NCBI RefSeq assembly: GCF_022045235.1
Contig: NW_027266270.1
Coordinates: forward strand, 9,486,001 to 9,550,000
Length of the DNA stretch: 64,000 nt
From: Haliotis cracherodii
Lineage: Eukaryota
Reading direction: 5' to 3'
The translations under genes and the position numbers were made by a program. A model generated the notes under the pieces. It was not told the origin of the DNA, did no database searches, and saw only the letters and a program-made list of their open reading frames with translations. Position 1 is the stretch's first letter; every line of letters begins with the position of its first letter. Below are positions 694-42,087 of this stretch, piece after piece.

Positions 694-2145
694 TCATCTG
701 GTTACACACGACAGCTGGAAAAGAGTAAAGTATCCAAAATTAGAACAGCAATAAAGACTATTTGATCATCTAATATTCGAAGTTCTTTGCAGTCTATATT
801 TATCAATCCCTTAAAAATCATTCGGTTCCTTGAAATGTTCCTCAACCAAATCAATTACATATACGTTTATCATGCGTGTGGCCCAAGTGTGGTCAATGCC
901 AAGAGCATCTCAAGCTACATACCTGGCAGATGAGTTTCTGTGCTGGTCGTTTATGTTGGTAGGTCCAGGCTAAATCCAGAAGGGCTAGACCATGTCCCTG
1001 ACTTTGACATCTCTGGATAAACTGCATACAGGCCGTTCGTAGGTCGGAGAATCCAAATTCCACAGATGCACAGAGTAATCCTGAAAGAACCGAGGACATA
1101 TTGTAATGTGTTTGATAAAATATTATCATGAAGGTGAAGTTCATGTTATGGATAATTGTGTGTGTTTCGCGCATGTGTCATCACGATTAGTGGAATGGCC
1201 ATACTTTTGTGTTGAAATGAATATCCCAGTTAAACAAATGAAGATAGTACTTACCAATCACATTGTTAAAACCGATGTTAGCTTTCCCTGAGTGGACGAA
1301 TTTGAGAAACGCCTGAAAGTCTCCAATGTGGTAGTCAGGAATGGTGATGGTGAGTTTCTGTGAAAAGGGTGAGTCTTTGATCTTTTTGGTCTTGGGTCGC
1401 TCAACGGAGGACTGTTTCTGATGTTGAAGCAAAAGCTGATACATGTACCTAGAGAAAAGAAAGAAAAAATTGAAGACGATATTTAAACACAAACAGTCCA
1501 AAAATTGTTCCCATGTTGAGTACATTCACAGGGTATAAGAGCCAAATGTACTCTACTTAAACATACACTTATTATTGTTCTGACCTTTTTAATGGATTAT
1601 TGTTTTGTAGAATATCTTACCTGCTTCGTGTAGCCATTATGGCTTTGACTCCATGAACAGGAGCCTTCTCCTTCCCAACGAGAAAGGTGACGTCACACAT
1701 CTCTGGCATGTTTAGGATGAGGGAGAGACTGTCCTGTAAGTCCCCTGTGCTTTTAAGCATCATGACGTCACCCCGACCGGAGGACTGTGAGGGGTGAGAG
1801 CTGGATTGGCTGAAAGATCTTGACTTCGAGGTCGTGCTGACGCCTTCATCAGAGGAGTAGTCGCTTGAGTCATAGCCTGAAGAGGTACCTTCAGCTGGAA
1901 TAAGAAAACAAATCAGTTATGAAATAATATTTCATTTGTTGCAAATGTTAGTAAAGCTGAGTGTTGTTTCTTGAACAAAATGTGTCCTTGAAATATACTT
2001 TGAAAAAACCATCAAGGAATTATTATCCTGATGTGATAAAAGTGAATAATGCAAATGTCTCACCGTCTGCGTCATGACCAGTGTGGTCAATAGTTTCCAT
2101 GGCCGAAGAGTCCAGAAGACAAAGTCGGGAATCGTAATGATTCAT
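694..2145 (-). CDS. BTB/POZ-domain protein paralog A1 (gprs/serine-enriched-protein-like BTB, truncated BACK), 5 exons, 242 aa
   Basis: Manually spliced exons 2145-2064, 1894-1621, 1448-1255, 1080-923, 714-694. All introns GT-AG, phases 1/2/1/0, open frame. Translation MNHYDSRLCLLD...SSGYDSSDYSSDE...LSLILNMPEMCDVTFLVGKEKAPVHGVKAIMATRSRYMYQL...FQAFLKFVHSGK...GLLCASVEFGFSDLRTACMQF...LSCVTR*. The CDVTFLVG/VKAILATRS motif is BTB-type. Confidence 0.9.
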
Positions 2146-2283
2146 GTTACTTGTTGTTAGATCTTATTGATAATGAAAGACAGAACTGATATTTGGTTAA
2201 ACTCGGCGAATCTAAAGATCTAAGTATGTATCTCGATGTAATGTTTCCAAGATTGGAATGCCTTCTTCCTCTACCAGACCAGC

Positions 2284-2433
2284 TTTATACCTTTGCGTAT
2301 CACAACACAAATGACAGAGTCATTACTACAACTACATGTCAGGATTAAGTCAATGTTGACACGAAGGCTTCAGCTTAGCACATTTTGCTAGTGGCACGTG
2401 CTGCACTTGTTAATGAGCTGACATCACGTGACC
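2284..2433 (-). promoter_or_regulatory. Conserved proximal promoter of A1 (2 E-boxes, GAAGCC-N3-GTGTCAACAT, TATA)
   Basis: CACGTG at 2395-2400 and 2425-2430, motif at 2371-2353, TATAAA at 2289-2284. The same layout is seen in C, D and E, and in A2 at 6678-6827. Confidence 0.75.
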
Positions 2434-3469
2434 AATCTAAGAATAAGTGTTCTACGGTAATGTCGTCTGTTGTCAAAACACCGAGATAATAGAGTTTGGG
2501 TGATGATGTGTTTCGGGTGTTTGATTATTTAAGGATTTACGATATACGTGTTCATTTGTCGGTGATAAATGGTATTGTGTTATTAAGGATCCATTTGGAG
2601 TCAAGTTATGTTTAATGCGAGTGGAACTTTTAGATGCTAATGATGTAAATGTAGTAACGGTATGTTGATGGAATTATACATTATCTACCTGTATACGTAC
2701 GTGAATTATTTGCACTTGAAATATAAATGTCTAGCGTTATAGATTCCACTCACTGAAAACAGCCATTGTGATTTCCTTATTGAAATAAAATTGAACTAAA
2801 ATAGTTCTGTTATTGAACAGTGTATAAATATATAACTGATCTTTTTTGTTTCAATTTTTTCAAGTGCAAGTGTGATATGACAACAAAGTTAGAGTGTCAA
2901 ATGATTTTTTATTGTTCATGTGTGCAAATGACACCCTGCTATTTCAATAAAATTTGTGTCAGCCAAAGTCATTTCATCGTGTCATTCGTCAAACAAACAG
3001 TTTGCTGAACTGAACTTTATTGTACTCCGGATTACTCGTGACACATAACCACATCATTTGGGATTGAGCGGAGGCGCAGCGATTTGTTGAGTTGAGGGCT
3101 TGGCTATAGATGATATGCACAGTGAGGAGTATTGTTTAATCATAAATTGAATGTGTGATTGTACGATTGCTGATAGATGTTGTAGACAAGCTAGTCAAGT
3201 GGTACATGTTTTTTAAACAAATTGATTGGCAATCAAGGCGCTTTGATGAACAATCTTCCAACGTGTCACATATAACTAGAACCTTTGAAAACACAAAGAC
3301 CACGTGCACATTATCAGGAAATGGCACATGAGACTTGTAGTGATGACATTATTGATACACATGGTCCGCTCTGACTTCCGAAAAGCCAGAGACAGTTGCC
3401 AGTGACATGAAATGGTTCTGAGACAATAATGTCAATACATGTTTCCTTTGTTATTTCCAGCATTTGCTA

Positions 3470-3780
3470 CAATAGATTCTGCCACGCAATGCATTCGCGA
3501 CTACGATTAGCTTGTAGTGATCTCAGCTTACACAAAGCTCATAGAATGATTTCAAATAAGTCATCCTGCTCTTGTGGCGCTACTTGCGAAACTACAACTC
3601 ATTATTTATTTGGATGTCAATATTAGTACACACATAGAAATAATATGTTTGTTATCCAATTGGATACGATCTTGTGACCGTAAGATCCTAAGTGGAATAT
3701 GGAAATGTTGCAAAAATCGGTAAGTAAAAGGGTAGATTTCATTCAGTCTGTGCATCGTTACATCTGTCACATTAAATGAA
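3470..3780 (+). mobile_element. Decayed non-LTR (CR1/L2-clade-like) retrotransposon 3' ORF2 fragment; duplicated at ~7864-8174
   Basis: HSRLRLACSDL...SCSCGATCETTTHYLFGC is a C-terminal zinc-knuckle region typical of LINE ORF2. Confidence 0.65.
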
Positions 3781-5087
3781 GCAATTAGGGTTCATTGTTC
3801 AAACACATACTAGTATCTTATAAGCAAAACCTTCCATTGTTGAGTCGTGTTATTGAATTAACATCTGAATGCCAGGCTATATGTGCTTCCTATGAAATCA
3901 CAGCTCATACACTGATATCCCGTGCAGAATAGCTTGTAATGGATTGGCATCAACATAAGACATGGGCTTGTTTTCCAATCCAGTTTGATTTCAAGCAATA
4001 ATTTTATTTCAACCATTCTCAAATAATCATTTACGTAAAGCCTAAGAAAAGCTTCAACTTTCCACACTTTCTAATTATGGTTACATGCACTCTCAGAAAA
4101 AAACAACTCTTTAGTGTTGTATTGTCTCAGACGTACGTTTGAAATATCAAAGATCATTAAAATTTACATGTGCAACATACGTTACACCTAATTATATACA
4201 AATGAGCTAATGACATTAACATGCGTGTTCAAGTTCTTTTTACCACGAAAGCTCTTTGCAGATACAGTTGACAACAATGTGTCCTTTATTAATGAGATAA
4301 AATATGCAGTATTTCAGCTAAATATGGAAGGAAAGCCGCAAATGGCGTACAACTTCTAAATCTAGATTCAAACCAACAAACACTGGATTCTGGACGCAAC
4401 TGTGCATACAGAAATGCGGTGGTCGAGGCCACACATGTCAACAATGAAAATGAATGGATATGTATTTGGTATTTTTGTAACATTTTATTTTTTAGAAAAA
4501 AATCGTAATTCTGATTAAATCGCAGTTCCTGTAATGCTCAGTTGAAATAATATATGATAATACATGTTCTTGAATGTATTGTATCTGTTCATTGTTACAA
4601 CATAAACTGTCACCATGCAAGCAATGTGGAAATGTAAAACTTAAACAGGTTCATATTTTCTGCCAATACTGTTTAATGAACATAGTAATACATAACATGT
4701 GTCGCTATTTTTATACATTCACACTGACACTGGCAAGGAACATAAGTACGATGACACTGTTAAGTACTTGTCGGTATGCTTTGTTCCTTCACATTAACAA
4801 CAACGTACAATGTGCAAGTCAAGAATCGTGTTTGACAATGCTATTGTCTTCACACACAGAGTGTCTTGGTGACTTTATCTTCGTCTTCGTCAACCACAGC
4901 TTTGTGACGCTCTAAACGTTATGGGACTGAGCGACAGTGACTGGTGTCTTCTTCTTCATTTCGTCGTCTTCGTCATCTTGAACAACAGGCTTGCTGCTGT
5001 TGGTTCATCCTCTCGTTGGGAACAGAGAATGTAGTGTGGATATTGATCCTACTGTTGGGAACCTTCATGTAAGCTCGGTTGCGGTTT

Positions 5088-6539
5088 TCATCTGGTTACA
5101 CACGACAGCTGGAAAAGAGTAAAGTATCCAAAATTAGAACAGCAATAAAGACTATTTGATCATCTAATATTCGAAGTTCTTTGCAGTCTATATTTATCAA
5201 TCCCTTAAAAATCATTCGGTTCCTTGAAATGTTCCTCAACCAAATCAATTACATATACGTTTATCATGCGTGTGGCCCAAGTGTGGTCAATGCCAAGAGC
5301 ATCTCAAGCTACATACCTGGCAGATGAGTTTCTGTGCTGGTCGTTTATGTTGGTAGGTCCAGGCTAAATCCAGAAGGGCTAGACCATGTCCCTGACTTTG
5401 ACATCTCTGGATAAACTGCATACAGGCCGTTCGTAGGTCGGAGAATCCAAATTCCACAGATGCACAGAGTAATCCTGAAAGAACCGAGGACATATTGTAA
5501 TGTGTTTGATAAAATATTATCATGAAGGTGAAGTTCATGTTATGGATAATTGTGTGTGTTTCGCGCATGTGTCATCACGATTAGTGGAATGGCCATACTT
5601 TTGTGTTGAAATGAATATCCCAGTTAAACAAATGAAGATAGTACTTACCAATCACATTGTTAAAACCGATGTTAGCTTTCCCTGAGTGGACGAATTTGAG
5701 AAACGCCTGAAAGTCTCCAATGTGGTAGTCAGGAATGGTGATGGTGAGTTTCTGTGAAAAGGGTGAGTCTTTGATCTTTTTGGTCTTGGGTCGCTCAACG
5801 GAGGACTGTTTCTGATGTTGAAGCAAAAGCTGATACATGTACCTAGAGAAAAGAAAGAAAAAATTGAAGACGATATTTAAACACAAACAGTCCAAAAATT
5901 GTTCCCATGTTGAGTACATTCACAGGGTATAAGAGCCAAATGTACTCTACTTAAACATACACTTATTATTGTTCTGACCTTTTTAATGGATTATTGTTTT
6001 GTAGAATATCTTACCTGCTTCGTGTAGCCATTATGGCTTTGACTCCATGAACAGGAGCCTTCTCCTTCCCAACGAGAAAGGTGACGTCACACATCTCTGG
6101 CATGTTTAGGATGAGGGAGAGACTGTCCTGTAAGTCCCCTGTGCTTTTAAGCATCATGACGTCACCCCGACCGGAGGACTGTGAGGGGTGAGAGCTGGAT
6201 TGGCTGAAAGATCTTGACTTCGAGGTCGTGCTGACGCCTTCATCAGAGGAGTAGTCGCTTGAGTCATAGCCTGAAGAGGTACCTTCAGCTGGAATAAGAA
6301 AACAAATCAGTTATGAAATAATATTTCATTTGTTGCAAATGTTAGTAAAGCTGAGTGTTGTTTCATGAACAAAATGTGTCCTTGAAATATACTTTGAAAA
6401 AACCATCAAGGAATTATTATCCTGATGTGATAAAAGTGAATAATGCAAATGTCTCACCGTCTGCGTCATGACCAGTGTGGTCAATAGTTTCCATGGCCGA
6501 AGAGTCCAGAAGACAAAGTCGGGAATCGTAATGATTCAT
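5088..6539 (-). CDS. BTB/POZ protein paralog A2 (copy of A1 at +4394)
   Basis: Exons 6539-6458, 6288-6015, 5842-5649, 5474-5317, 5108-5088. The sequence is essentially identical to A1. Confidence 0.85.
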
Positions 6540-9480
6540 GTTACTTGTTGTTAGATCTTATTGATAATGAAAGACAGAACTGATATTTGGTTAAACTCGG
6601 CGAATCTAAAGATCTAAGTATGTATCTCGATGTAATGTTTCCAAGATTGGAATGCCTTCTTCCTCTACCAGACCAGCTTTATACCTTTGCGTATCACAAC
6701 ACAAATGACAGAGTCATTACTACAACTACATGTCAGGATTAAGTCAATGTTGACACGAAGGCTTCAGCTTAGCACATTTTGCTAGTGGCACGTGCTGCAC
6801 TTGTTAATGAGCTGACATCACGTGACCAATCTAAGAATAAGTGTTCTACGGTAATGTCGTCTGTTGTCAAAACACCGAGATAATAGAGTTTGGGTGATGA
6901 TGTGTTTCGGGTGTTTGATTATTTAAGGATTTACGATATACGTGTTCATTTGTCGGTGATAAATGGTATTATGTTATTAAGGATCCATTTGGAGTCAAGT
7001 TATGTTTAATGCGAGTGGAACTTTTAGATGCTAATGATGTAAATGTAGTAACGGTATGTTGATGGAATTATACATTATCTACCTGTATACGTACGTGAAT
7101 TATTTGCACTTGAAATATAAATGTCTAGCGTTATAGATTCCACTCACTGAAAACAGCCATTGTGATTTCCTTATTGAAATAAAATTGAACTAAAATAGTT
7201 CTGTTATTGAACAGTGTATAAATATATAACTGATCTTTTTTGTTTCAATTTTTTCAAGTGCAAGTGTGATATGACAACAAAGTTAGAGTGTCAAATGATT
7301 TTTTATTGTTCATGTGTGCAAATGACACCCTGCTATTTCAATAAAATTTGTGTCAGCCAAAGTCATTTCATCGTGTCATTCGTCAAACAAACAGTTTGCT
7401 GAACTGAACTTTATTGTACTCCGGATTACTCGTGACACATAACCACATCATTTGGGATTGAGCGGAGGCGCAGCGATTTGTTGAGTTGAGGGCTTGGCTA
7501 TAGATGATATGCACAGTGAGGAGTATTGTTTAATCATAAATTGAATGTGTGATTGTACGATTGCTGATAGATGTTGTAGACAAGCTAGTCAAGTGGTACA
7601 TGTTTTTTAAACAAATTGATTGGCAATCAAGGCGCTTTGATGAACAATCTTCCAACGTGTCACATATAACTAGAACCTTTGAAAACACAAAGACCACGTG
7701 CACATTATCAGGAAATGGCACATGAGACTTGTAGTGATGACATTATTGATACACATGGTCCGCTCTGACTTCCGAAAAGCCAGAGACAGTTGCCAGTGAC
7801 ATGAAATGGTTCTGAGACAATAATGTCAATACATGTTTCCTTTGTTATTTCCAGCATTTGCTACAATAGATTCTGCCACGCAATGCATTCGCGACTACGA
7901 TTAGCTTGTAGTGATCTCAGCTTACACAAAGCTCATAGAATGATTTCAAATAAGTCATCCTGCTCTTGTGGCGCTACTTGCGAAACTACAACTCATTATT
8001 TATTTGGATGTCAATATTAGTACACACATAGAAATAATATGTTTGTTATCCAATTGGATACGATCTTGTGACCGTAAGATCCTAAGTGGAATATGGAAAT
8101 GTTGCAAAAATCGGTAAGTAAAAGGGTAGATTTCATTCAGTCTGTGCATCGTTACATCTGTCACATTAAATGAAGCAATTAGGGTTCATTGTTCAAACAC
8201 ATACTAGTATCTTATAAGCAAAACCTTCCATTGTTGAGTCGTGTTATTGAATTAACATCTGAATGCCAGGCTATATGTGCTTCCTATGAAATCACAGCTC
8301 ATACACTGATATCCCGTGCAGAATAGCTTGTAATGGATTGGCATCAACATAAGACATGGGCTTGTTTTCCAATCCAGTTTGATTTCAAGCAATAATTTTA
8401 TTTCAACCATTCTCAAATAATCATTTACGTAAAGCCTAAGAAAAGCTTCAACTTTCCACACTTTCTAATTATGGTTACATGCACTCTCAGAAAAAAACAA
8501 CTCTTTAGTGTTGTATTGTCTCAGACGTACGTTTGAAATATCAAAGATCATTAAAATTTACATGTGCAACATACGTTACACCTAATTATATACAAATGAG
8601 CTAATGACATTAACATGCGTGTTCAAGTTCTTTTTACCACGAAAGCTCTTTGCAGATACAGTTGACAACAATGTGTCCTTTATTAATGAGATAAAATATG
8701 CAGTATTTCAGCTAAATATGGAAGGAAAGCCGCAAATGGCGTACAACTTCTAAATCTAGATTCAAACCAACAAACACTGGATTCTGGACGCAACTGTGCA
8801 TACAGAAATGCGGTGGTCGAGGCCACACATGTCAACAATGAAAATGAATGGATATGTATTTGGTATTTTTGTAACATTTTATTTTCTAAAAAAAATCGTA
8901 ATTCTGATTAAATCGCAGTTCCTGTAATGCTCAGTTGAAATAATATATGATAATACATGTTCTTGAATGTATTGTATCTGTTCATTGTTACAACATAAAC
9001 TGTCACCATGCAAGCAATGTGGAAATGTAAAACTTAAACAGGTTCATATTTTCTGCCAATACTGTTTAATGAACATAGTAATACATAACATGTGTCGCTA
9101 TTTTTATACATTCACACTGACACTGGCAAGGAACATAAGTACGATGACACTGTTAAGTACTTGTCGGTATGCTTTGTTCCTTCACATTAACAACAACGTA
9201 CAATGTGCAAGTCAAGAATCATGTTTGACAATGCTATTGTCTTCACACACAGAGTGTCTTGGTGACTTTATCTTCGTCTTCGTCAACCACAGCTTTGTGA
9301 CGCTCTAAACGTTATGGGACTGAGCGACAGTGACTGGTGTCTTCTTCTTCATTTCGTCGTCTTCGTCATCTTGAACAACAGGCTTGCTGCTGTTGGTTTA
9401 TCCTCTCGTTGGGAACAGAGAATGTAGTGTGGATATTGATCCTACTGTTGGGAACCTTCATGTAAGCTCGGTTGCGGTTT

Positions 9481-10237
9481 TCATCTGGTTACACACGACA
9501 GCTGGAAAAGAGTAAAGTATCCAAAATTAGAACAGCAATAGAGAGTATTTGATCATCTGATATTCGAAGTTCTTTGCAGTCTATATTTATCAATCCCTTA
9601 AAAATCATTCGGTTCCTTGAAATGTTCCTCAACCAAATCAATTTCATATACCTTTATCATGCGTGTCGCCCAAGTGTGGTCAATGCCAAGAGCATCTCAA
9701 GCTACATACCTGGCAGATGAGTTTCTGTGCTGGTCGTTTATGTTGGTAGGTCCAGGCTAAATCCAGAAGGGCTCGACCATGTCCCTGACATCTCTGGCAT
9801 GTTTAGGATGAGGGAGAGACTTTCCTGTAAGTCCCCTGTGCTTTTAAGCATCATGACGTCACCCCGACCGGAGGACTGTGAGGGGTGAGAGCTGGATTGG
9901 CTGAAAGATCTTGACTTCGAGGTCGTGCTGACGCCTTCATCAGAGGAGTAGTCGCTTGAGTCATAGCCTGAAGAGGTACCTTCAGCTGGATTAAGAAAAC
10001 AAATCAGTTATGAAATAATATTTCATTTGTTGCAAATGTTAGTAAAGCTGAGTGTTGTTTCATGAACAAAATGTGTCCTTGAAATATACTTTGAATAAAA
10101 ACATCAAGGGATTATTATCCTGATGTGATAAAAGTGAATAATGCAAATATCTCACCGTCTGCGTCATGACCAGTGTGGTCAATAGTTTCCATGGCCGAAG
10201 AGTCCAGAAGACAAAGTCGGGAATCGTAATGATTCAT
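9481..10237 (-). pseudogene. BTB paralog A3, internally deleted (exon 2-exon 4 fusion, frameshift)
   Basis: Exon 1 is 10237-10156 and exon 2 starts at 9985. The junction at ~9787 (gtccctg|acatctctggcatg) removes the equivalent of A1 1001-1696. The frameshift gives ...MPEMSGTWSSPSGFSLDLPT* (TAA 9740-9738), about 109 aa with no BTB core. Confidence 0.85.
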
Positions 10238-10361
10238 GTTACTTGTTGTTAGATCTTTTTGATAATGAAAGACAGAACTGGTATTTGGTTAAACTCGACG
10301 AATCTAAAGATCTAAGTATGTATCTCGATGTAATGTTTCCAAGATTGGAATGCCTTCTTCC

Positions 10362-10424
10362 GACTGACTGACTGATATAGAAGATTTAACGTGCGCTTTC
10401 CGACTACAGCGTATTTCGCACACG
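10362..10424 (-). mobile_element. Short retroelement 3'-tail insertion with (CAGT)n end in the A3 5' region
   Basis: Absent at the homologous A1 site (~2262-2270). Flanked by TTCTTCC repeats. Confidence 0.55.
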
Positions 10425-11020
10425 GTTCTTCTTCCTCTACCAGACCAGCTTTATACCTTAGCGTATCACAACACAAATGACAGAGTCAACTACAACTATA
10501 TGTCACGATTGCTGCACTTAATGAGCTGACATCACGTGACCAATCTAGCCGTGAGTGTTCCACGGTAATGCCGTCTGTTGTCAAAACACCGAGATAATAG
10601 AGTTTGGATGATAATGTGTTTCCTTTGCCGGTGTTAAATGGTATCTTGTTTGAAGCTTCTATTTGTACAGAAGTTATATTTGATGTGAGTTTAATGTTTA
10701 GATGCTAATAATGTAGATGTAGTTACAGAATGTTGGTGGAATTATACAATATCTACCTGCATAAATAAGTGAATTATTTGCACTTGACATATAGATATTA
10801 AATTGAAGACAGTCATTGTGATTTCCTTATTAATTTGAAATTGAACTGAAATAGGTCTATTATTGAACTGTGTTTAAGCATAACTGATCTTTTGGTGTGT
10901 TTTTTGCTGTTGCAATTTTCTCAAGTACGAGTATGATAACACAAAGTTAGAATGGCAAATTATAGAAGAGAATGTTTCTATTTCTGGTATGTGCATATGA
11001 CTCCCTGCTATTTCCTTAAA

Positions 11021-11187
11021 GGGGCGGTCGGGTAGTGGTGAAAGCGTTTGCTCGTCAGGCCGAAGACCCGGGTTCGATTCCCGACATGGGTACAATGTGT
11101 GAAGCCCATTGCTGTTGTCCCCGCCGTGATATTGCTGGAATATTGCTAAAAGCGGCGTAAAACCATACTCACTCACTCACTCACTCA
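11021..11187 (+). mobile_element. tRNA-derived SINE family 1, full-length with TSD
   Basis: GGTTCGATTCC B-box, body ...CCGCCGTGATATTGCTGGAATATTGCTAAAAGCGGCGTAAAACC, (ACTC)n tail. TSD ctatttccttaaa/ctattcccttaaa. Empty site at ~2939-2951. Confidence 0.9.
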
Positions 11188-13905
11188 CTATTCCCTTAAA
11201 ATTTGTGTCAGCCAAAGTCAATTCACCGTGTCACTCTTCATTCAGTTTGCTAAACTGAAACTTTATTGTGTTCTGGAATACTCGTGACACATGACCACAT
11301 CATTTGGGAATGTTGAAGAAAGCGAAGATGATTCTCAGCTTCACTCAACACAAAGCGCAAAAAAATCATTTTAAGATGTTTGTAGATGGTTTGCTAACAA
11401 CCGGTGTCAACATGATTTATTTTCAGAATTTATGATGATATTTTAAAGTTTACCAAAATGTACAACTTTTATGTATATAACCAACATGTTGAATAAACAT
11501 AAACAAGAAAGAAATGAATAACAAATCAGTTCAATCTGTTGTAGATCACATATTATATTATAAATTAATTCATGACCAAAATAATTAAGTCAGAATTAAA
11601 TCGTCATTTGCGATACGTTTTTTTAATAATAAAAAACCTGTATCATCAGTCCACTTTTCGTCTCTTTGTATGTGCATCTTTTAGGTGAGCTTTTGATGCC
11701 TCACCAGATAGCCAGATACTTCTCGTGTGGCATATGTTTCTAGGAAAGCGAAGTCCTTGGTACCCATTCACACAACCATTCATTTCTTCTGCAATATCTA
11801 TTTTCAACAACACTTACAAGCAATATTATATAAGGATGACATGGTGTGTACAGGCAAGGTTATATAAGGATGTCATCGTATGTATGTATATAAACCTGAA
11901 TGTACAAGGCAATGGCTGGAATTGTTCCTTACATATCCAGTACTACTTCATAGGTGTTACCACCTCATTTAGAAACTGGCACTCATCTTCAGGATTAAAC
12001 TTCCAAATCTAATAGAAATCTCTGCAAAGAAGTCGCAAACAGCAGAAAAGAGGCATGGGTTTTATAGTTTGAGCTCTTGTATCATTCCACAAAGTGACAT
12101 ATTTGTTTAGAGACAGAGACAAATGAAGTCGTTCCCTGAACCAAATAGGTTTTTTTAGTCGTACTAGATGTAAGGAAAATATCCACAGTGTCTCAAATTA
12201 AATACGTACTTTACACATTTTCCCTCATCACAAAATGACATTTTTCCATTAAAGGACACCTTTCCTTCTGACATTGTATTTTCAATGTTTAGCTTTAATG
12301 TGTTACTGTTCTGGCATAGTATTGTAATCACAAAGTAGATAACAATTAAGATAACAAGTGTATAATGTCCTGTTAATTAGATCATCAATTAAATTGCATT
12401 GGTGTGTGTATTCAGCTGTTTATGGGCAATTAACTTACATGATAATGGCAAGACAAACTTCAGGAGGAACTGACACATTACAGATACTGTATGTAATGCC
12501 CTGAGGGCGACTTCCAGAACGAAATAACCCGACATTTTTACAATAATATGTTCGTCAACATTACGACTTTTAAGCTGTCATGACACTGTTTATAGTAATG
12601 TGCAATAATTGTAATCAATAGGTATTTTATCATGTGCATTCTTAAGATCGATGAACATCAAAATATAGTTGTTTGATCTGGATTTGTGGGATGAAACTGT
12701 GTAGGGTCTTCGCAGAAAGAAACTTGTCGTAAATATATTCTTAGTATTATTCCTCGCTTAATTCTTTTCTTCAAACTATCAGATGGAATATCATCAAGTA
12801 ACCAATTAATAACATGTATCGTAATAAATATTTAATGGAAGATTATATGGTATGTTTAAGGAAATTCTCTTAAAGTCCTTGTGCCCTTTTTCATGCGAAT
12901 TCTATGATGAATAAGTCACACAAATACCTGGTTGGAATAGGTAGAATGTGTTTGATTTAAGTTGAAAGACAACAGTTATATTAATTACTTACCATTTAGG
13001 GTTACACATTTGGAAAAAATCAGTAATGACTGTAAACAAAACTTAGGTGAAACCTCAACAGTCGTATGCATTTTAAAATTCGCAAAGTTTAACTTGAGAC
13101 AACATCAAGTACATATACGAAATATGAGTAAAAATACTTGGGAGAAAATTTGCCGAACCATGCCATGCATATAACATTGTCCTAAAGATGTTGCAATGTC
13201 AATGCTTTTCCCCTTCGGGCTTATCAATTTATGTACCTATTTGCCTGAAATATCATAGTTACAATGGACTAAGTACGAATTGTGTTCCCAGGTTATAAGA
13301 CGCAGCCCCAGAGTAAAGAAAATGAAGTATATAACAGTTCAAACGAATTAACTAGTTAAAGTTTATATTAGGCTTCCTTGCTTTTATAGCGCAAACACGA
13401 TTGTTACTAAGGATAGCATAACCAACCGAAATAAACACATATCCCCGCTTCACCTGGAATCTGTGATTTCAATGTATTCAGTAGCGCTTAATTAAGATTC
13501 CGAAACACATTCATTGTATAGTTGTTTACTTATAGATGCCTGTAAAAAGGGAGAACCTCGCTGCATCTTTGTCATTCTACTTGGGTCTTAAATTCTTTTG
13601 TGTGTGCATTGTAGAAGTGATAGATCAACTTAATGAAAGCACATAAGCAAATTATCGGAAACATGAGTTTGTTATATGTATATAGCATTATAAATGATAA
13701 TAGGTGACTAAGGTATAAATATATTACACTGCCAATGCCACACGCCTATTTACAAATTGAAATGTAGCATCAACGTTTCGAACCATACTTCGTGCCTTCC
13801 TTTAATTTGTGAAATTGCATGATATCTATTTCTCTTTGCATCTCAACATGTTTACAAAAATGGACCCGTCTACTTGTCTATATACAGGCGTGTGTAGGTA
13901 CCATA

Positions 13906-14790
13906 TAGACAGACAGACAGACAGATTGTTTATTTGAGTCTCACCTCACAAAAATAATTACATAAATACATATAAAAGGACATAAAAGTGAGCCACCCGT
14001 TAAGGGTTACGAGAGACTTAAAATATATCACAGTATGTACAGCATAAATATATTGGTGTAAAAGGGGTATGAAAATATACTACCCGCAACTAGCCATGTA
14101 AAATATTTTTTCTTCGTGGGAGAATTAAAAAGCAGGTTTTGGCTGTTAAATATACATAATATTTAAAAAGTACAATAAGTATATCAGTATTGGATAACTC
14201 TAGATAGTTGGGATAGCTAAAACTCACCTTTTCGTATAAACTTTCACGCAAATCATCGTACACAGGACAATCAAGCAATACATGACATTCATCTTCAATA
14301 CTTCCCTTACACTGAAAACACACTCTTTCATTCCCATTCATATTCATATATCTGCCTGTTTCCAACTTCAGAGGAGCAGTACATGATATAAATTTGGAGA
14401 AGGCAGAGCGGTAAGAACGAGGCATATACATACTTACATAACTTTCACATCCATACCCATCTTTAAACATTCTATACGTACGTAATTTGTTACCACCCGT
14501 TCTTCCGCCAGGCTTGCATAACCGTTCATTGCAACCAGGCACATACTTTCCCATGCATATATCTTGCACACGTACAACTACACTTTTCACGCTAACATTC
14601 TCAGAAAAATTCAGACCCCATTCGTTCAGCTTTGCCCTCAGACGAAAATTCCAGTTTTTCACACGTCCACCAGCATAACGTTCAGACCACATAAAAGCAT
14701 ACTTATTTAATCTAAGGGACATTTTAGTAAAACGACAATACTGTCTAACAATACACATCCACTGTCTAACTATCGGAGGAATCCATCATG
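13906..14790 (-). mobile_element. 5'-truncated LINE (ORF2 C-terminus, 3'UTR, (TCTG)n tail)
   Basis: ORF 14090-14758 contains NKLRTYRMFK...APLKLETGRY...ERVCFQCKGSIEDECHVLLDCPVYDDLR. AATAAA followed by (TCTG)n at ~13935-13907. Absent from the homologous spacer at ~23655. Confidence 0.9.
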
Positions 14791-15769
14791 TCTTGTAGGT
14801 TGTGTGCATGTATATGTATGCCCAATAGGTGCATGTATGAATGTAGATGTCTGTGTGAAGATGCGTATGTGTGTGTGTATGCGGTGTTCATGTGTGAATG
14901 ATATGCTAGTTTACTATTATCCGTAAACGTGTGTGTTGCTTACGTAGGTAGTTATTTATCATCATTTTCTTCTTTTTAAAGCTTGTGATTTGGGAATAAA
15001 ATTAAAAAGAAGAGTCCCTGGAAGAATTCAATTCATATACCTGTTTGCCCGAAATATAATAGTTACAATGGACTAAGTACGAATTGTGTTCCTAGTTAAT
15101 AAGACGCAGCTCCATAGTAAAGAAAATGAAGTATGTAACAGTGTTGTAGGTTGTGTGCATGTTAGGTAGTTATTTATCATCATTTTCTTCTTTTTAAAGT
15201 TTGTTAATTGAGAATAAAATCAAAAAGAGGAATTCCTGAAGTGTGTGAAATATATTCTGGGTATGCATGTCTGAAATGACCCTTACTTGTCATAAAAGCG
15301 ACAAAACCACGTTCAGAATCATAAGCAATCTCCTTGTACGATTCCAATTATACCAATAACCTGCTTTTATGAATCAAAATCAATTAGTGATGATACCAGG
15401 TGACAGGTGGCTTTAGTGATAAATAGTGAGCCACCTTCTGTATATGGCACTTTTACCTTTGCAAAGGATGATTTTTTACCATGGTTTTAGATCACATTCT
15501 TTGAGCAGTCTCAACATATGATTTGGCAATGTAGTGGTGAAATGAAGGGAAACCGTTTTTTATCTATATGTTAGGCTTCCATGCTTTACAAAACAAACAT
15601 TGCAGTTATATAAGGGAATTATACCGACAAACAACAATATTATCCTGGTTTCATGACGACAATATTGCTTCAATTGAGCGGTGGGCCTAAAACAAAACAT
15701 CCGTTTAATTGTTTTCATATGAATGTCGCTTACCGCAAAAAGTGATAGATGTAGTAAGAAGATAAAGAC

Positions 15770-17070
15770 TTAATTGTATGGATCCAATTCATAATTTTAT
15801 TGTGTGCAGATGATGCTGTATTATTTGATGAATCACCAGAAGGTTTATAGAAAGGCTTAGACACTTTTAATGAACATTGTGAAGAGTGGAAATTACATGT
15901 AAATATAAACAAAAATTGTGATTTTCGGTGGTGACCCATCGAAAAATTCGAAACATAAATTTCACTATTCTGATAAAACTCTAAATATTGTCGACACTTA
16001 TACGTATCTAGGAATTGTACTTCACAGGAATAGAAAACTAGTATCAAGTCTTAGGTCCCTTAGTGATAATGCATTGAAAGCAATGTTTTGTCTGATAAAA
16101 AATCAAGAAATTTAAATTTACCTTTCGACTGTGTATTATCAGCTTTTGATACGATGGTATTACCAAATATTAACCTATGGTTCAGAAATCTGGGGCTTTG
16201 AAAATTTAGAACTTATAGAAAGAATACACCTCAAATTCCTCAGACTGATCACAGGATTAAGAAATTCAGCTCCTCTTTATATGATATATGGCGAATTAGG
16301 TAGGCTGCCGTTAAGAATAATAATTTGTAAAGGAATGATATCTTTCTGCTACAAATTAACACATCAAACTGGTGTGTATAAACTTTCACAGCTGTTATAT
16401 CAATATTTGTCAATTAATAGGAATAAGACTATTGCATCAAAAAAGCCCTGGGTTAGACGTGTTATGGATATATTAGACAGTATTGAATTATCTTATGTAT
16501 TTAACATTCCGTCAATTTGCACAACAAAGTGGCTAGTGTCAGAAGTAGAGCAAATGCTTAAAGATAATTCTTTTCAGAAATGGAGAAGTGACGTTAATTT
16601 TAGTTCTAAAGGATTATAATATAAACATTTAAAGGACACTCCGGCTCTCGATAAATATCTTCTATTGCCAAAACGAATAGCAATTCCAATACTACGATTT
16701 CGAACCTGTAATCATAATTTACCTAATGAGACTGGCCGATAGAAAAATATGTAAATCTCCATCTATTGCTGATGAATTTCACTACTTATTCAGATGTATG
16801 TTTTTTAAAAGAGAGACACAAACATTTCTCTCATCATATTATACTGAATGGCTAAATATTATAATAATATAAAACTCTTATCAACAACAAACACACAGGA
16901 TGTAAAGAATTTCTCGAAGTTTATTGTAAAAATGTCCATTAGTATTAAAAATGCTAGGTAATCACATGTTGTTTATTAACTTCCACCTTGTCTGCTTTTT
17001 GTACATATACATAATTATTTATTGTAATATGTACCACCTTTTATGGTTTTTGAGAATAAACTGATTCTGA
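15770..17070 (+). mobile_element. Decayed LINE ORF2 (RT domain end to 3' tail)
   Basis: LLCADDAVL (RT YADD motif), ILTYGSEIWG...MIYGELGRLPL, LRFRTCNHNLPNETGR, ADEFHYLFRC. Contains frameshifts and stops. AATAAA at ~17055. Confidence 0.9.
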
Positions 17071-17860
17071 CATCAATTATCACAGTCCAGCAATGATTAA
17101 CGAATTACAAGACATTACAATGAACACTTTTAATTGATTCTTTGAAATACAATCATTGCGTTCATTTGTTTCAACTAGATCAACACATCAAAATAATCGA
17201 TTATATGAAGCACACATTCATGTAATTATAAGTGTTATTGGGATTGTAGTTGCTGTGGAACTACTCCACTCTATATACAACCTGATGTGTCATCATAATG
17301 CGCAGGAAGTAACAGAGTGAAGCATGTGACAGATGTTTACCACTCCGGTGGTAACAGAGAACTTGTCTGGAATTCGAACAAATATCAAAAATTCCCGGTA
17401 ACAACTGTAACGTGTTGTACATTCTGCACAATTTATATTCGTGGCCCCGTGCCTGATTGGTACATCCACAAATTTGTCCTTCACAGGGATCAAGGCATGC
17501 TTGTGCGCTGACCTGGACTGTTCCGCAGCACCATGAACTTCCATGGTCATCCTCTCATTCACTGTGACATGACTTTGATGTCCTCGATCTATTTCTTCAG
17601 TCACCAACTGGAGCCCGGTAAGGGATCTGGGATTCGAACCTACACCCAGGGAGTCTATAGTCTTTGTATAGTTTCCCTGCTGTATCCAATGGAAACCAAT
17701 TTCAGCTTGTGTTCAGCTGTGCCTCCTTCAGGGCCGTACGACGACATTCCACGTCCTGTCCTGTCGAGACCTGTCGTTGATGTCCTCCATCTGTGTCTCC
17801 AGTCTTCTACTGGATCCCGGGGGTGGGCTGTTACTGAAACCTCTTGACGCATTGAGAACT

Positions 17861-20000
17861 TCAGCTGCTTACATTGGATAGCTGGAACAAACATGAATTA
17901 TGCAATGGCTAATTATGTCAAATATATTGAACAAATATCGGTTCACTGCACAACTGATCCAGTAATTACAGGCTAATGTAAGGTATTGTCTAGGAGTTGA
18001 ACCACTTTTATCCAAAATTTGATGTATGTTATTGTTACGAATATTTCACCAAAGCAATCAATGCCTACCACGCCTACGTATAACTCGGGATTGGTGCCGT
18101 GATATCACTGAAATGCCTTATTGGTGCAAAATAGCATTTTAACCACTCTCATCAGCCAAGCAATGACCTCGAGTGAGTTAGTATAATGTAAACATGTATG
18201 TATGGTTGTTGGTCAGTGTTCCATTAGTATAATGTCCATTGCTACATGTATTTCCCTTCTACACCAAGTGGAATCTGTTTCGGGAGAAAATCAAGGCTGT
18301 TTTTTCTCTTGCATTGACAATTTATCTTTATTGATCTGAATTGCACTTAAAATAGAGTAGAATAGTTATATGTGTATATATTACAACATAAATAATCATA
18401 TAGCATATGTTTTTCTTATACATACCCGACATATCAGTTTCTGTGCTGTACGTTTGTGCTGGTAGTTCCAAGCAGAGCCGATTAATGCTGATCTATGTCC
18501 CTTGTCTTGTAATATATCATTGAACTTCATGCAGGTCGACTGAAGGTCGGGAAATCCAAACTCGACAGCAGCACAAAGAAGTCCTACAAACAAAAAATAT
18601 TTATAAAAAATATTTGTCACGAAAAGACTTTCGACACACAAAAAAATCAATGCAACAGATATAGAAACAAAATAAGTAAAACAAAGAATGTTCCTTATTA
18701 GTGTTTATATAGAAATATAAAAGCACAAGATTAATGCACACACTTACCTATTACATTGCTGGAATCTATTTCTACCTTGCCCGAATGAACGAAACGTACA
18801 AATGCCCTGAAATCCTCAACTTGATAATCAGGGACCTTGATGCAGAGTTTGTGTTGGATTGGGGAAGGTTTGGATTTCTTTGATCTTTTCTTACTGGTGT
18901 TATCGTATTCGACTTGTTTTTGTTGTTGCAGAATCAGCTGGTACAGGTATCTGAAAATATGGAATTAAAAAGTGTAATGCAAATTCTTTACTGTTACTTT
19001 TCTTACATGGCAAAAATGGCTGAGAACAATCATTTGTACATACAAGTGTTGACCCTGTATTAAGATATGAGCTTACGTTTTGTTTGTATATTGTTCTTGT
19101 AAAATGGATACGAATATTCATACATCTATTTACACGGCTGATATTTTTTAATTTCATGCGTTAAGATGGCAAGCCTGTAACATGTATTACCTGCTTCTGG
19201 TAGCTAAAATAGCCTTGACTCCATAGATAGGAACCTGTTTTCTACCAACAAGGAATGTGACGTCACACATGTCTGGCATTTCCAAAATGAGGCTGAGGTT
19301 ATCCTGAAGCTTCCCTGTACTCCTCAACATCATCACATTCCCGCATGTCGGGTTTCGGATGGATCTACAACGTCCTGTAGGTTGCTGTTTAAAGGCAGAT
19401 GCTGGACATGCTGGAGGGGGGTTTAGGGGTAAGTGGTGGTCGTTTGCCTCCTCATCTGAGAAATCACTCGACTCATAGCCGGAGGAAGAACTTTCTGCTG
19501 AAATCAGTAAATTTGTTTTAAAACAGTGGTTAGATTTAAAAGACAAATACATCATGTATGATGTCGAGTATAACATGAAATAACATCTATAGGTATTATA
19601 TAAGGTAAATAATTTATCGATGTAAACCAGCACACTAATGTCTTGAATAACCTAAACTTCCACGCTTAGGAAAGTATATTAAATCTGAAGTGAATTCTGC
19701 AAAAAATAATTGAAAATATCTTATGATATGTGACTTGTGTATAGACTGGACAGTTCAGAGTACATAAAGAAACATATGATGGGTTCTGGAACGATAGTGT
19801 GACATTAAAACTATAACCCTATAACATTCTCTTATTGAAGGTTAGTGAGTTTGGATTTTAGTCATTTAAATAGCTAAGAAATGTAAACATCATAAACTAT
19901 ATGTATTCTTACCATAAACATCTGATTCGTAGTTACAATGGTCAACATGTTCCAAGACATCACTGTCAAGGAGACAAACTCGGGAATCATAACGGTTCAT
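17861..20000 (-). CDS. BTB/POZ protein paralog C, 5 exons, 258 aa
   Basis: Exons 20000-19913, 19497-19191, 18950-18748, 18583-18426, 17881-17861. GT-AG introns with the same phases as A1. Translation MNRYDSRVCLLD...SSGYESSDFSDEE...MPDMCDVTFLVGRKQVPIYGVKAILATRSR...LSNVSS*. Confidence 0.9.
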
Positions 20001-20110: not shown

Positions 20111-20258
20111 TTTATACCCAAGCGTATCCAAACACAGCTGATAATGTAGTTCTAATCACTTCATGTCAACCAAAATCAATGTTGACATATCGGCTTCTGT
20201 TTCGATTGTTTGCTCGTGCCACGTGGTTCAGTGATGAATTAGTCGTAATCACGTGACC
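20111..20258 (-). promoter_or_regulatory. Conserved proximal promoter of paralog C
   Basis: CACGTG at 20220-20225 and 20250-20255; GAAGCCgatATGTCAACAT at 20197-20179; TATAAA at 20116-20111. Confidence 0.75.
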
Positions 20259-24557: not shown

Positions 24558-25561
24558 AAACGACAGAGAGACGCATGTGGTAGATGTTTACCACTCTGGT
24601 TGTGACAGAGAAGGTGTCTGGAATTCGAACCAATATCAAATATTGCCCCGCAACAACTGTAACGTGCTGGACATTCTGCACAGCTTACATTCATGACCCC
24701 GTTCGTGGTTGGAACATCCACGTCTTTGTTCTTCATAGGGACCAAGGCATGCCTGTGCGTTGACCTGGACTTCTTTCTGTTCCATATATACGATGGCATT
24801 CCGTGGGCCGCAGCACCATGACTTTCCGTAGTCATCTTCTCATTCATTGTGACATGACGTTGATGTCCTCGATCTATTTCTTAAGTCATCTTCTGGAGGC
24901 TGGGAAGGTGTCTGAGATTCGAACCAATATCAAGGGTGTCTATGGTCTTTGTATTGTTCCCCTGTTGCATCAAATATCTCCGACAGCAAGCCGCATAACT
25001 TTAAATGCGGCATACAGTTTGCACAGCTTGCATTGATGGAACCAATGTGTGATCAGCTGAACATCCTTTAGGGCCGTACGACGACATTCCACAAGGTCGT
25101 ACGATGACATACGGTTCTCTTCTTCTCATCCACTGAGACCTGTCGTCTTTGTCCTTCACAGGGATCAAGGTATGCCTGTACGCTGACCTGGACAGTTCCG
25201 CAGCACCGTGACCTTCCGTAGTCATCTTCTCATTCACTGTGACCTGACGTTGATGTCCTCGATCTATTTCTTCAGTCATCTACTGGAACCCGGTAAGTGA
25301 TCTGGGATTCGAACCTATACCCAGGGAGTCTATAGGCTTTGTATAGTCTCTCTGCTGTATCCAATGGAAACCAATGTAAGCTTGTGTTCAGCTGTGCCTC
25401 CTTCAGGGCCGTAAGACATTCCACTGGGTCGTACGATGACATACGGTTGTCGTCTTCTCATCCACTAAGATCTGTCGTTGATGTCCTCCATCCGTGTCTC
25501 CAGTCTTCTTCTGGATCCCAGGGGCGGGCTGTTACTGAAACCTCGCGGCGCTTTGAGAACT

Positions 25562-40001: not shown

Positions 40002-40150
40002 GGTCACGTGGTGGTCATTACTGTAATCACAACAGTAACTGACATGAGAAAGGTAAAGTGGAAGCCTATGTGTCAACATAGGAGTTCTCGGGACAACGGC
40101 ATTGTGGCACTGCCATCTCCATCATTGTGTTGACAGTCAGGGGTATATAA
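40002..40150 (+). promoter_or_regulatory. Conserved proximal promoter of paralog F
   Basis: GGTCACGTG at 40002-40010; GAAGCCtatGTGTCAACAT at 40061-40079; TATATAA at 40144-40150. Confidence 0.7.
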
Positions 40151-40267
40151 CAGGCAAGTGACCGCTTGTGGTCATTCCTTCTCGGACTTCCATACATTCA
40201 CTTCGGATTACCAACAAGATCTGTGGATTTTATACGCATACTGGAATTACACACAACATCCAGAAAC

Positions 40268-42087
40268 ATGAACCGTTGTGATTCTCGTGTTCACCTGTTG
40301 GATTGTGATATCCTTGAGGATGTCCGTCAGGTAGAGCTAGAAGGTAGGTCATACCTGTGTTATTGTCTCTCTGTGCTATGATGTGGGATGCATACAAACC
40401 GACCTCAAGATAATAACTTCTGAAAGTTTCTGGAGTGTCCGAAATAAATATACTACCGTCGGTATACGTTTTGTACCCTTTCCATCACATTTTGGACATT
40501 TTCAGTAATTCTATCTACTTGATATATTTGATGAAATGGATGATCTGAATTCATGATTATGTTCCTTTTTAATATTAGTTTTATTCAGGAACAGGAAAGC
40601 ATGTGCATGACAGCTTATATTCAATAAATATTTATTTTTCAGCTGAAAGTTCCTCTTCTGGGTACGATTCCAGCGAGGACGACACCCCCTCTCGCTCAGC
40701 AATGAAGCCGTCCCGCTCCACCCAAGGGGAGGTCATGATATTTAGAAGCACCGGGGGTCTGCACGATAGCCTTGCTCTCATTCTTGATATGCCAGAGATG
40801 TGTGACGTCACATTCCTGGTCGGGAGGAGGCAGGTTCCTGTCTATGGTGTCAAAGCTATTCTGGCTACGAGAAGCAGGTAAGGTTCGATTACAAACCACC
40901 CATTGGGGAAGGGATGGGTCTGCCATTGTCCAGTAACAGTCCCTCCATGCTAGTTCTCACTTGTGAGACTAGTAGCCATTGCTGATTTAGCTAATAACAC
41001 TTGAACAACTCATTTTCCACACACACAAGAACGCCACCCGTAGAGGAAAGTATCACTACAATATCCCAAGTAGGTTGCCTGTACTCCATATTGGATAAAT
41101 GACAGTCCCACGTGTGACATGTATCCCGTCTATCACATGAAAACGTTACTAAATTAAGGTATAGAAGTAACATTGTTCTACCAAGGAAGTGCCGCTTCAT
41201 TCATTCATCAACTATGATGCATTTCTCAGCAGGCAATTTTTTATTCGTGTTGCAGATGCTTGTACCAACTAATTCTTCACCACCAAAGGAAGGCGGAGAC
41301 GGAATCATCCAACAAAAAGTCAAAGAAGGCAAAACGTTCACCCCTCCCCCAGAAGCTGGTGATCAACGTGCAGGACTACTCAGCTGAGGATTTCAGAGCG
41401 TTCATCACATTCGTACACTCGGGAAAGGTCAAGGTTGACGCCAGCAACGTAATTGGTAAGTCACTGGCCATTATAAAACGAATATACTACAAGCACTATT
41501 GACTCTTCATATTCCATCTCCTTGTTAAAAATCAGGGCCATTGTAATGATGTGTTTATTTTCAAATTAAGTTATTTTTCGTTTCTTCAGGTCTCCTCTGT
41601 GCTTCTGTCGAATATGGATTCTCCGACCTTCATGCCGCATGCGCAAAGTTCATCCAGAGATCCCAGGAGCAAGGTCAAAGCAAATACGTTCTTGATTCAG
41701 CGTGGACCTACCAACACAAGAAGGCGGCTCAGAAACTTATTTGCAAGGTAAGCATCCTGATCTATCTATACACTGCACTGATGTTTCTTTGATGTTTCAC
41801 AATACCCGTAGGCTTCACCAAAAATGGTAAACGCATAAGAACTGTATCTCTACAGGCTTCCTCCCACATTAATATTACGCGCCGTGATCTAAAATCCACC
41901 AAATGATGATAACGCTCACGTTAAAGCGTTACATTATTAACCTGCAGTCAGTGTGCACTCGATTTTCATTCTAAGCTTCCTCGGGAGTTTTAATTCTCGC
42001 AATGTCATCAGCTTATATATCGAATAATCTGTGAGACCGTATTATCATTTCTCATTACTCTTTCAGCTCTCCAGTGTCTCCAGATGA
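40268..42087 (+). CDS. BTB/POZ protein paralog F, 5 exons, 229 aa, head-to-head with E
   Basis: Exons 40268-40343, 40643-40877, 41256-41455, 41590-41747, 42067-42087. GT-AG introns with the same phases. Translation MNRCDSRVHLLD...SSGYDSSEDD...MPEMCDVTFLVGRRQVPVYGVKAILATRSR...LSSVSR*. Confidence 0.9.

Follow-up and report, generated by a model that had tools for sequence, protein, structure and literature searches.

Proteins of the gprs (serine-enriched protein) family, in which a BTB domain is followed by a BACK domain, occur in insects, echinoderms, amphioxus and chitons, and gprs transcripts have been reported in the developing central nervous system of the fly (PMC5393633). Other BTB proteins act as adaptors of Cullin-3 (Cul3). 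The BTB-3-box unit of KEAP1 or SPOP suffices for Cul3 binding (PMC10564622), and the 3-box hairpin is a Cul3-binding element in KLHL3, SPOP and KEAP1 (PMC3616122, PMC10564622). Binding of KLHL3 also needs the phi-x-E motif: substitutions E85A and A77E abolish measurable binding, and the negative patch at phi-x-E is the constant electrostatic feature of surfaces that vary outside it (PMC3616122). Short degrons recognised by beta-TrCP are described in PER2 (degron D2, SSGYGS; PMC11223080) and in DEPTOR (SSGYFS; PMC5237168). Here we compare with these systems a cluster of small BTB genes of the abalone Haliotis cracherodii, contained in 64,000 nucleotides of contig NW_027266270.1 (positions 9,486,001 to 9,550,000, assembly GCF_022045235.1), referred to below as the window.

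Short mollusc proteins of this kind are labelled "serine-enriched protein-like" in databases, and many such entries carry no function. The locus shows that these proteins form a single old clade whose members are built alike: they have an invariant degron-like motif and a predicted BTB dimer module, lack the Cul3 motif, and are cut cleanly at an ancestral intron. It is a further example in abalone of macrosatellite amplification of an entire gene together with its regulation. None of the individual parts is of a new kind, and BTB genes often expand in tandem. Among the papers listed in the literature searches, no study of the short family and no functional study of either short or long forms was found.

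Seven genes on one exon plan

Self-BLAST and annotation by hand revealed seven five-exon paralogs at 694..42087, six of them intact and one broken. Copies c1 to c6 are encoded on the minus strand, while c7 is inverted.

694..2145, minus strand: gene c1, 242 amino acids; exons 2145-2064, 1894-1621, 1448-1255, 1080-923, 714-694
5088..6539, minus strand: gene c2, 242 amino acids, coding sequence identical to c1; exons 6539-6458, 6288-6015, 5842-5649, 5474-5317, 5108-5088
9481..10237, minus strand: pseudogene c3; a 696-bp deletion fuses exons 2 and 4 at 9788/9789 and breaks the frame
17861..20000, minus strand: gene c4, 258 amino acids; exons 20000-19913, 19497-19191, 18950-18748, 18583-18426, 17881-17861
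25562..27793, minus strand: gene c5, 257 amino acids, 93% identical to c4; exons 27793-27706, 27301-26998, 26758-26556, 26418-26261, 25582-25562
33306..35130, minus strand: gene c6, 255 amino acids; exons 35130-35043, 34580-34283, 34026-33824, 33682-33525, 33326-33306
40268..42087, plus strand: gene c7, inverted, 229 amino acids; exons 40268-40343, 40643-40877, 41256-41455, 41590-41747, 42067-42087

All 24 introns of the six intact copies follow the GT-AG rule and the reading frames are open. Exon 4 measures 158 nt in each of the six, and exon 5 has 21 nt (six codons and TGA) in the six and in c3. The peptide encoded by exon 5 reads Leu-Ser-x-Val/Ile-Thr/Ser-Arg/Ser before TGA. Differences in this exon among the copies are mostly found at synonymous positions; since the first codon changes at its third position only (CTG/CTA/CTT/CTC), the six-codon frame is supported. 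When tblastn was run with c6 as query, the same seven copies were recovered and no eighth one was found in the 64-kb window. Genes c4 and c5 lie inside a duplicated block of about 9 kb (11347-20444 versus 20665-28271), which is 73-86% identical and interrupted by insertions. By these alignments c4 and c5 are the younger pair, and c6 and c7 are two old paralogs.

Database proteins of H. cracherodii match parts of c5 (P0022, its C-terminal part), c6 (P0001) and c7 (P0011, its last 155 amino acids). These models are too short, and those of c5 and c7 begin at an internal Met and do not contain the N-terminal motif described below. Pfam BTB hits were below threshold when single exons were searched; database copies of the cluster proteins were used instead, and here BTB scores above the cut-off (E 2.6e-14 for P0011). 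Pfam BACK gave no match in five of five short proteins and a match in three of three long ones. Neither Kelch, MATH, PHR nor another substrate-binding domain was found in the spliced products, as judged by gene models, RNA-type contigs and Pfam. A preliminary description of this locus had proposed seven paralogs on one five-exon plan, with constant lengths of exons 4 and 5 in the intact copies, encoding a BTB domain with only the start of a BACK region and no substrate-binding C-terminal domain. Gene models and tblastn bear this out, as do the Pfam searches and, for the C-terminus, spliced RNA-type contigs of a related organism.

A conserved degron-like motif

All six window proteins carry SSGY[DE]S near the N-terminus. 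Relatives were compared in an alignment of 44 rows, from which 7 were dropped as truncated models. SSGY[DE]S is present in 36 of the 37 rows with intact N-terminus and SSGY-x-S in all 37. The motif forms a sharp island of conservation, its five fixed residues being invariant (tyrosine in 38/38) and its flanks variable. It is found in none of the 81 long relatives. In most members it lies 25-34 residues from the N-terminus, and the degron pattern [DS]SG-phi-x-S falls within the low-confidence region (pLDDT, predicted local distance difference test, 46-57) formed by residues 1-60 of the P0041 model introduced below. By analogy with the PER2 and DEPTOR degrons, SSGY[DE]S is likely a beta-TrCP destruction tag, in line with the shared degron proposed previously.

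The acidic serine tract behind the motif suits priming by CK1, CK2 or GSK3, according to their consensus rules. In the window proteins the first lysine downstream of the motif is 12-73 residues away, and the lysine-rich loop of the BTB domain is also available.

Two further short words were observed in these proteins. A looser one (S-R-[LV]-x-L-L-D-x-D-x-L-E type) lies upstream of the motif at residues 5-17 of c1-c7; its loose pattern recurs in 20 of 35 rows, has low confidence in the monomer model and is not named in the dimer interface. At the opposite terminus, 16 of 23 bivalve members (P0009, P0024, P0026, P0046 and others) end in [ST]-x-V, compared with 0 of 20 gastropod members. This ending we take to be a class I PDZ ligand pattern.

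Absence of the Cullin-3 motif

Profile alignments to SPOP and BTBD6 place a hydrophobic-x-Glu 12-14 residues after the Arg of the "RS" word, presumably the phi-x-E of SPOP. This assignment agrees with the description in PMC3616122. At the same register phi-x-E was found in none of the six window proteins, in one of 44 short relatives and in none of 81 long relatives; registers shifted by -1, +1 and +2 gave 0, 0 and 1 matches, respectively. Window proteins show Gln-Lys-Gln or Gln-Arg-Lys at this place. The position eight residues before the Glu, which corresponds by spacing to A77 of KLHL3, is occupied by Gln in 36/44 short forms and by Lys in 76 of the 80 long forms scored. In addition, the alpha3-beta4 loop is rich in lysine, with net charge of +5 to +8 in the window and positive charge in 44/44 relatives.

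On balance, the cluster proteins fall outside the Cul3 adaptor class by its defining motif. The suggestion that they are Cul3 adaptors or decoys is thus not supported: phi-x-E is lacking in the window proteins, in 43/44 short relatives and in 81/81 long ones. The whole gprs family may be independent of Cul3, given the long forms (P0250-P0327, P0159, P0162, P0165) without phi-x-E and with Lys at the A77-like position.

Predicted fold and dimer

P0041, an H. asinina paralog encoded elsewhere, headed the 44-row alignment from which AlphaFold2 built its model. Residues 1-60 of this model have pLDDT below 60; they are followed by a BTB domain predicted with confidence, in which residues 131-150 form a flexible loop, and by two more helices. 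Both helices align with the last part of the BTB-3-box constructs of SPOP and KEAP1 (SPOP residue 321, KEAP1 residue 203); superposition on 3htm gave Z of 13.4 and root-mean-square deviation of 5.1 with 144 residues aligned. Top Foldseek matches were SPOP, BTBD6, KEAP1 and KLHL3. Other BTB proteins, among them ZBTB8A, NPR1 and SLX4, stood just as high in the VIA-align list.

As a homodimer P0041 scored 0.77 versus 0.00 for the best of three controls; the runs share at least 53% of contacts with pLDDT of at least 71, and the predicted interface is made of the usual BTB elements. The dimer mark is reached in eukaryotes by 17/29 solved pairs and by 0/30 single chains. Because BTB dimers have been solved many times, this pass may reflect known structures learned by the model and shows likeness only. 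With this reservation, the short BTB protein is predicted to form a homodimer.

Origin from gprs

Profile searches listed 113 matches of similar length, 150 cluster representatives and 81 longer proteins. Closest among the matches listed are proteins of 220-310 amino acids from gastropods (Haliotis, Lottia, Patella, Gigantopelta, Littorina) and bivalves (Mya, Mercenaria, Ruditapes, Mactra, scallops, oysters, Mytilus, Solemya, Sinanodonta), and all 81 longer matches listed are BTB proteins of gprs type. The ESM Atlas yielded generic BTB clusters only.

To estimate relationship among these proteins, a quick maximum-likelihood tree of 80 rows was constructed, in which 6 of 81 chosen database rows were left out since the trimming motif was not found in them. 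The short forms make up one clade of 55 rows within gprs-like proteins (support 99 in the Shimodaira-Hasegawa-like approximate likelihood ratio test, SH-aLRT), and those of its members that carry names come from gastropods and bivalves. The long chiton and insect forms fall outside this clade. The group of 76 rows that nests short forms with gprs proteins has SH-aLRT of 91. The four types of the window belong to an abalone clade (13 rows, SH-aLRT 99) with counterparts in H. asinina, H. rubra and H. rufescens, and the local cluster therefore predates those species.

The exon plan offers a view of the origin of the short form. Among 40 metagenome loci, 11 of 13 exon-4-like stretches have a phase-0 donor at 158 nt. 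Such an exon is present in degron-bearing loci, bivalve-like by eye, as well as in long arthropod-type gprs loci; in one locus (L010) the exon after the same intron continues into BACK-type sequence. Because it is shared by related loci including the long type, the 158-nt exon is ancestral and not peculiar to the cluster. The most plausible history of the short form is thus that a gprs gene exchanged the exons beyond this old intron for a single short terminal exon.

Kinship with gprs, noticed earlier from the BTB motif, is supported by profile searches and by the position within gprs-like proteins in the tree; the Pfam search recognises BTB and no BACK, and the short clade lies inside this group. 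The idea of a lineage-expanded family stands for the array and the local paralogs. It does not hold for the short form itself, which is present across gastropods and bivalves.

Two of the metagenome loci showed other arrangements. Locus L001 (423-1079) contains a degron-bearing member in one unbroken stretch, apparently intronless, with four TGTCA words upstream. On a non-abalone contig, L027 (307-7000), two degron-bearing copies lie 5.7 kb apart; tandem duplication, as far as this contig indicates, recurs in other lineages.

Splicing and selection

Transcripts were sought in sequencing runs; two of these, X14 and X15, stem from a related organism and are presumed, as a guess, to be RNA. In each of the two a single c6 contig matches exon 2 and, after a gap of 361 letters, exon 5. 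The gap equals the summed lengths of exons 3 and 4, and the contigs continue along the genome for 232 and 382 letters beyond the stop codon, that is, into the 3' untranslated region (UTR). Linkage of exon 2 to exon 5 was likewise observed for c7 in X14 and X15 contigs, and exon 2 of c5 is covered from edge to edge within an RNA-type contig of 931 nt. For c5-c7 splicing was read from the table of contig pieces, the table of joints being swamped by repeats. The c1 type in X14 shows GT-AG joints at 9985-10156 and 9501-9710 on the minus strand, and its 3' UTR is covered. Splicing past exon 5 into a longer C-terminal domain, which would have contradicted the preliminary description, was not seen in these relatives.

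A different frame of exon 5, open for 30-60 codons, is present in c4 and c5 (17700-17880 and 25400-25580) and is used by the database models P0005 and P0045. The longer C-terminus that P0005, P0013 and P0045 obtain through the other frame was rejected: the short frame is favoured by the 361-letter gap of the c6 contigs together with the synonymous pattern of exon 5.

Purifying selection acts on the paralogs. Of nine old pairs among c1, c4/c5, c6 and c7, four are saturated at synonymous sites and five have a ratio of non-synonymous to synonymous substitution rates (dN/dS) of 0.09-0.18. The ratio for c4 and c5 is 0.31 (17 synonymous changes per 165 sites, 20 non-synonymous per 606; Fisher p 0.00065). 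The values thus range from 0.09 to 0.31 and are not near 1, a value that would have contradicted the earlier proposal.

Promoters

Upstream regions of the copies contain the following elements.

2284..2430, minus strand: c1 promoter module; CACGTG at 2425 and 2395, GAAGCC at 2366, TGTCAACA at 2354, TATA-like site 144 nt upstream of ATG
6819 and 6789, minus strand: c2 promoter E-boxes, CACGTG
10354..10538, minus strand: c3 promoter, decayed; E-box at 10533 remains, second E-box, GAAGCC and TGTCAACA are gone
20180..20255, minus strand: c4 promoter module; CACGTG at 20250 and 20220, GAAGCC at 20192, TGTCAACA at 20180
27975..28051, minus strand: c5 promoter module; CACGTG at 28046 and 28016, GAAGCC at 27987, TGTCAACA at 27975
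35277..35353, minus strand: c6 promoter module; CACGTG at 35348 and 35318, GAAGCC at 35289, TGTCAACA at 35277
40005..40078, plus strand: c7 promoter module; single CACGTG at 40005, GAAGCC at 40061, TGTCAACA at 40071

Intact copies share one order of elements: TCACGTG, a second CACGTG 30 bp further (except in c7), GAAGCC, TGTCAACA, which begins 10 bp after the start of GAAGCC, and a TATA-like site. Two E-boxes 30 bp apart are found in c1, c2, c4, c5 and c6, and one in c3 and c7. Altogether 12 of the 20 CACGTG occurrences in the window lie inside the seven promoters. The four independent promoters have two 8-mers and four 7-mers in common, compared with means of 0.0055 and 0.066 in 2,000 random quartets from the same region.

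The common words thus exceed chance, as the claim of a shared promoter code implied. Since synonymous sites are near saturation, these words have been kept by selection. They were inherited from a single ancestor and for this reason show conserved control, which is not proof of co-expression. From the promoter words and the N-terminal motif we infer that the family is probably co-regulated and short-lived.

A tandem array of c1-type units

The left part of the window is occupied by two long repeats.

1..4394, minus strand: array unit with gene c1, promoter and spacer (self-BLAST; high contig depth in two DNA-type runs)
4395..8788, minus strand: second array unit, 99.95% identical to the first (self-BLAST)

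The 4,394-bp units differ by two base mismatches, with none in the coding sequences. They are the last whole units of a head-to-tail array that continues past the left edge of the window, and by this near-identity c1 and c2 do not count as independent copies. In the DNA-type run X2, contig depth is 103-120 over the unit and 7.4 over the flank unique to c3; in X5, a run of another study, the values are 204-243 and 6.6-18. Contig depth of this kind does not equal copy number, and it is taken here only to mean that the copies are many and did not arise by artefact in a single assembly. The 3' UTR also has a second, c1-like variant (window 8950-9330), present in X2 and X5 at about half the depth of the main unit, which suggests another sub-array or locus.

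Next to the array lies c3. Its deletion has an identical 10-nt word at both ends of the deleted part, its reading frame runs into a stop after 109 amino acids, and a 74-bp high-copy insertion (10354-10427) precedes the ATG. The c3 junction was not bridged by any of the listed contigs of other runs, and the deletion is known from the window only. Judged by self-comparison, the window shows the end of a gene-bearing macrosatellite, followed by a broken edge copy and older paralogs. Brand-new, old, inverted and dead copies are found together, just as had been noted previously.

Possible function

The properties described above are best accounted for by an induced BTB dimer, timed by SCF-beta-TrCP (the Skp1-Cullin-F-box ligase with beta-TrCP), that acts stoichiometrically on a bound partner and independently of Cul3; we give this scheme slightly less than an even chance. 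A basic helix-loop-helix factor would bind the CACGTG pair and evoke a pulse of protein. Kinases of the CK1/CK2/GSK3 type would phosphorylate serines of the motif, aided by the acidic serine tract behind it, and beta-TrCP would bind the phosphorylated motif and direct the protein to destruction by SCF-beta-TrCP. The lysine-rich loop would likely serve as ubiquitin acceptor or nuclear import signal. The BTB dimer would hold its partner until both are released or degraded. Lacking both a catalytic and a substrate-binding domain, it would act in stoichiometric amounts. Gene copy number would then matter, in keeping with an amplification that took in the entire c1 unit, promoter included.

Several observations weigh against this scheme. 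The 3-box hairpin is retained and the gene ends directly behind it. No lysine precedes the motif in 6/6 window proteins and in 17/38 relatives, which also fits a decoy of beta-TrCP. Models of fold and dimer concern a paralog from another locus and not a window protein, and the RNA evidence comes from runs guessed to be RNA, from related organisms. The CACGTG core is used by many factors, e.g. MITF/TFE, USF, Myc and those of HIF type. The promoter words do not occur in exact form upstream of the three non-abalone loci examined (L001, L004 and L029); boxes of CACGTT type and AAAGCC are present in L004. Finally, among the 113 and 81 matches listed there is no named gastropod or bivalve long gprs that could be a heterodimer partner. 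A dominant-negative role of the short form against long gprs was also considered and is unsupported: among the named matches listed, long molluscan forms occur in chitons only.

Other functions can be envisaged for the same parts. The BTB-3-box unit could bind Cul3 after all, the protein being either a decoy without substrate or an adaptor that holds substrates by its N-terminus. The protein ends exactly after the 3-box, BTB-3-box units of KEAP1 and SPOP suffice for binding (PMC10564622), Cul3-binding surfaces vary outside the motif (PMC3616122), and SPOP, BTBD6, KEAP1 and KLHL3 are the top Foldseek matches. We nevertheless consider Cul3 binding quite unlikely: phi-x-E is missing (0/6 in the window, 1/44 short, 0/81 long), Gln or Lys stands at the A77-like position and the loop is basic. 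That the protein stops behind the 3-box needs no functional reason, since an ancestral intron lies at this point, and the fold does not single out Cul3 adaptors, as the VIA-align list is equally led by ZBTB8A, NPR1 and SLX4. Similarly small is the probability that we assign to a pseudo-substrate, in which the two phosphodegrons of a dimer, with no lysine nearby, would occupy dimeric beta-TrCP and so stabilise PER, IkB or beta-catenin. Titration of this kind would be suited by the predicted dimer and the high gene dose, by the distance of the motif from the N-terminus and by the lack of upstream lysine in the window proteins, where the first one follows the motif 12-73 residues on. On the other hand, an upstream lysine is present in 21/38 relatives, the flexible lysine-rich loop could accept ubiquitin, and conservation of the BTB surface and loop would be left unexplained. 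It is somewhat less improbable, but still unlikely, that SSGY[DE]S is a phospho-docking site (for phosphotyrosine or a kinase) of a small scaffold placed by the basic loop and, in bivalves, by a PDZ-type C-terminus. The invariant tyrosine (38/38) and the [ST]-x-V ending of bivalve members speak for such docking; however, spacing and residues match two documented SSGY-x-S degrons, and abalone proteins without the C-terminal pattern still keep the motif.

One alternative concerns the array only and is compatible with any of these functions. Extra c1-type copies could be neutral products of unequal crossing-over or an artefact of assembly, in which case the four older paralog types would be the only ones of importance. 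With 2 differences in 4,394 bases, the units have left no time for selection to show, and c3 is already dead. Depth in X2 (103-120 versus 7.4) and X5 (204-243 versus 6.6-18), even though it is not copy number, argues against a pure artefact, and spliced contigs of the c1 type are present in X14. We regard a neutral array as rather doubtful. The stoichiometric, beta-TrCP-timed dimer can also be extended to a specific role. The protein would be a timer of snails and bivalves, made from gprs cut at an old intron and a PER2-type beta-TrCP degron and standing, in abalone, under paired E-boxes of CLOCK/BMAL type. Driven by E-boxes and rapidly degraded, it would then serve a circadian or tidal clock in feedback or output, independently of Cul3 and, in this lineage, at a dose raised by the gene-bearing macrosatellite. 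CACGTG E-boxes in the proximal promoter, as in genes controlled by CLOCK-BMAL1, are present in all seven copies, and abalone Bmal1 is reported to act via CACGTG boxes in abalone promoters (PMC9189711). This clock role is a long shot.

Other features of the window

Outside the cluster genes, open stretches at 14090-14785 (minus), 16116-16619 (plus) and 58433-58780 (minus) resemble decayed ends of long interspersed (LINE) retrotransposons by eye and gave no Pfam hit. Very high-copy short repeats, by eye similar to short interspersed elements (SINEs), were found at 11022-11185, 25786-26069, 28934-29178, 32401-32634, 36970-37259 and 63388-63660; one SINE-like high-copy repeat is situated inside intron 4 of c5. 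Minisatellites occur at 44532-45916, 46775-47237, 48172-48411 and 51646-52790, with units of 32 bp (43 and 14.5 copies), about 43 bp and 36 bp. On the minus strand, 60540-60720 is a short open stretch rich in Cys and Trp, and at 61985-62783 (plus) there are two likely exons that end a different gene and contain an acidic LD-like word.

Comparison with known systems

With the Cul3 adaptors SPOP, KLHL3, KLHL11, KEAP1 and BTBD6 the abalone proteins share the BTB and 3-box fold and the predicted homodimer. They differ in having no phi-x-E and a basic loop there, no Kelch, MATH or PHR domain, and a degron-like motif at the N-terminus. As regards the beta-TrCP substrates PER2 (D2) and DEPTOR, five of six motif positions are the same, and the motif likewise lies in a serine-rich region predicted to be disordered. 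The fifth position is Asp or Glu in the present proteins, the domains are unrelated and no lysine precedes the motif in the abalone proteins, whose recognition by beta-TrCP is putative.

The closest resemblance is to the gprs family. Both groups have the BTB core words CDVTFLVG and ILATRS, an insertion in the alpha3-beta4 loop, no phi-x-E and the 158-nt exon ending after the 3-box. Long forms of 340-1,340 amino acids possess a Pfam BACK match and a tail, and SSGY[DE]S is found in 0/81 of them, whereas the short form stops behind the first BACK hairpin and does have this motif.

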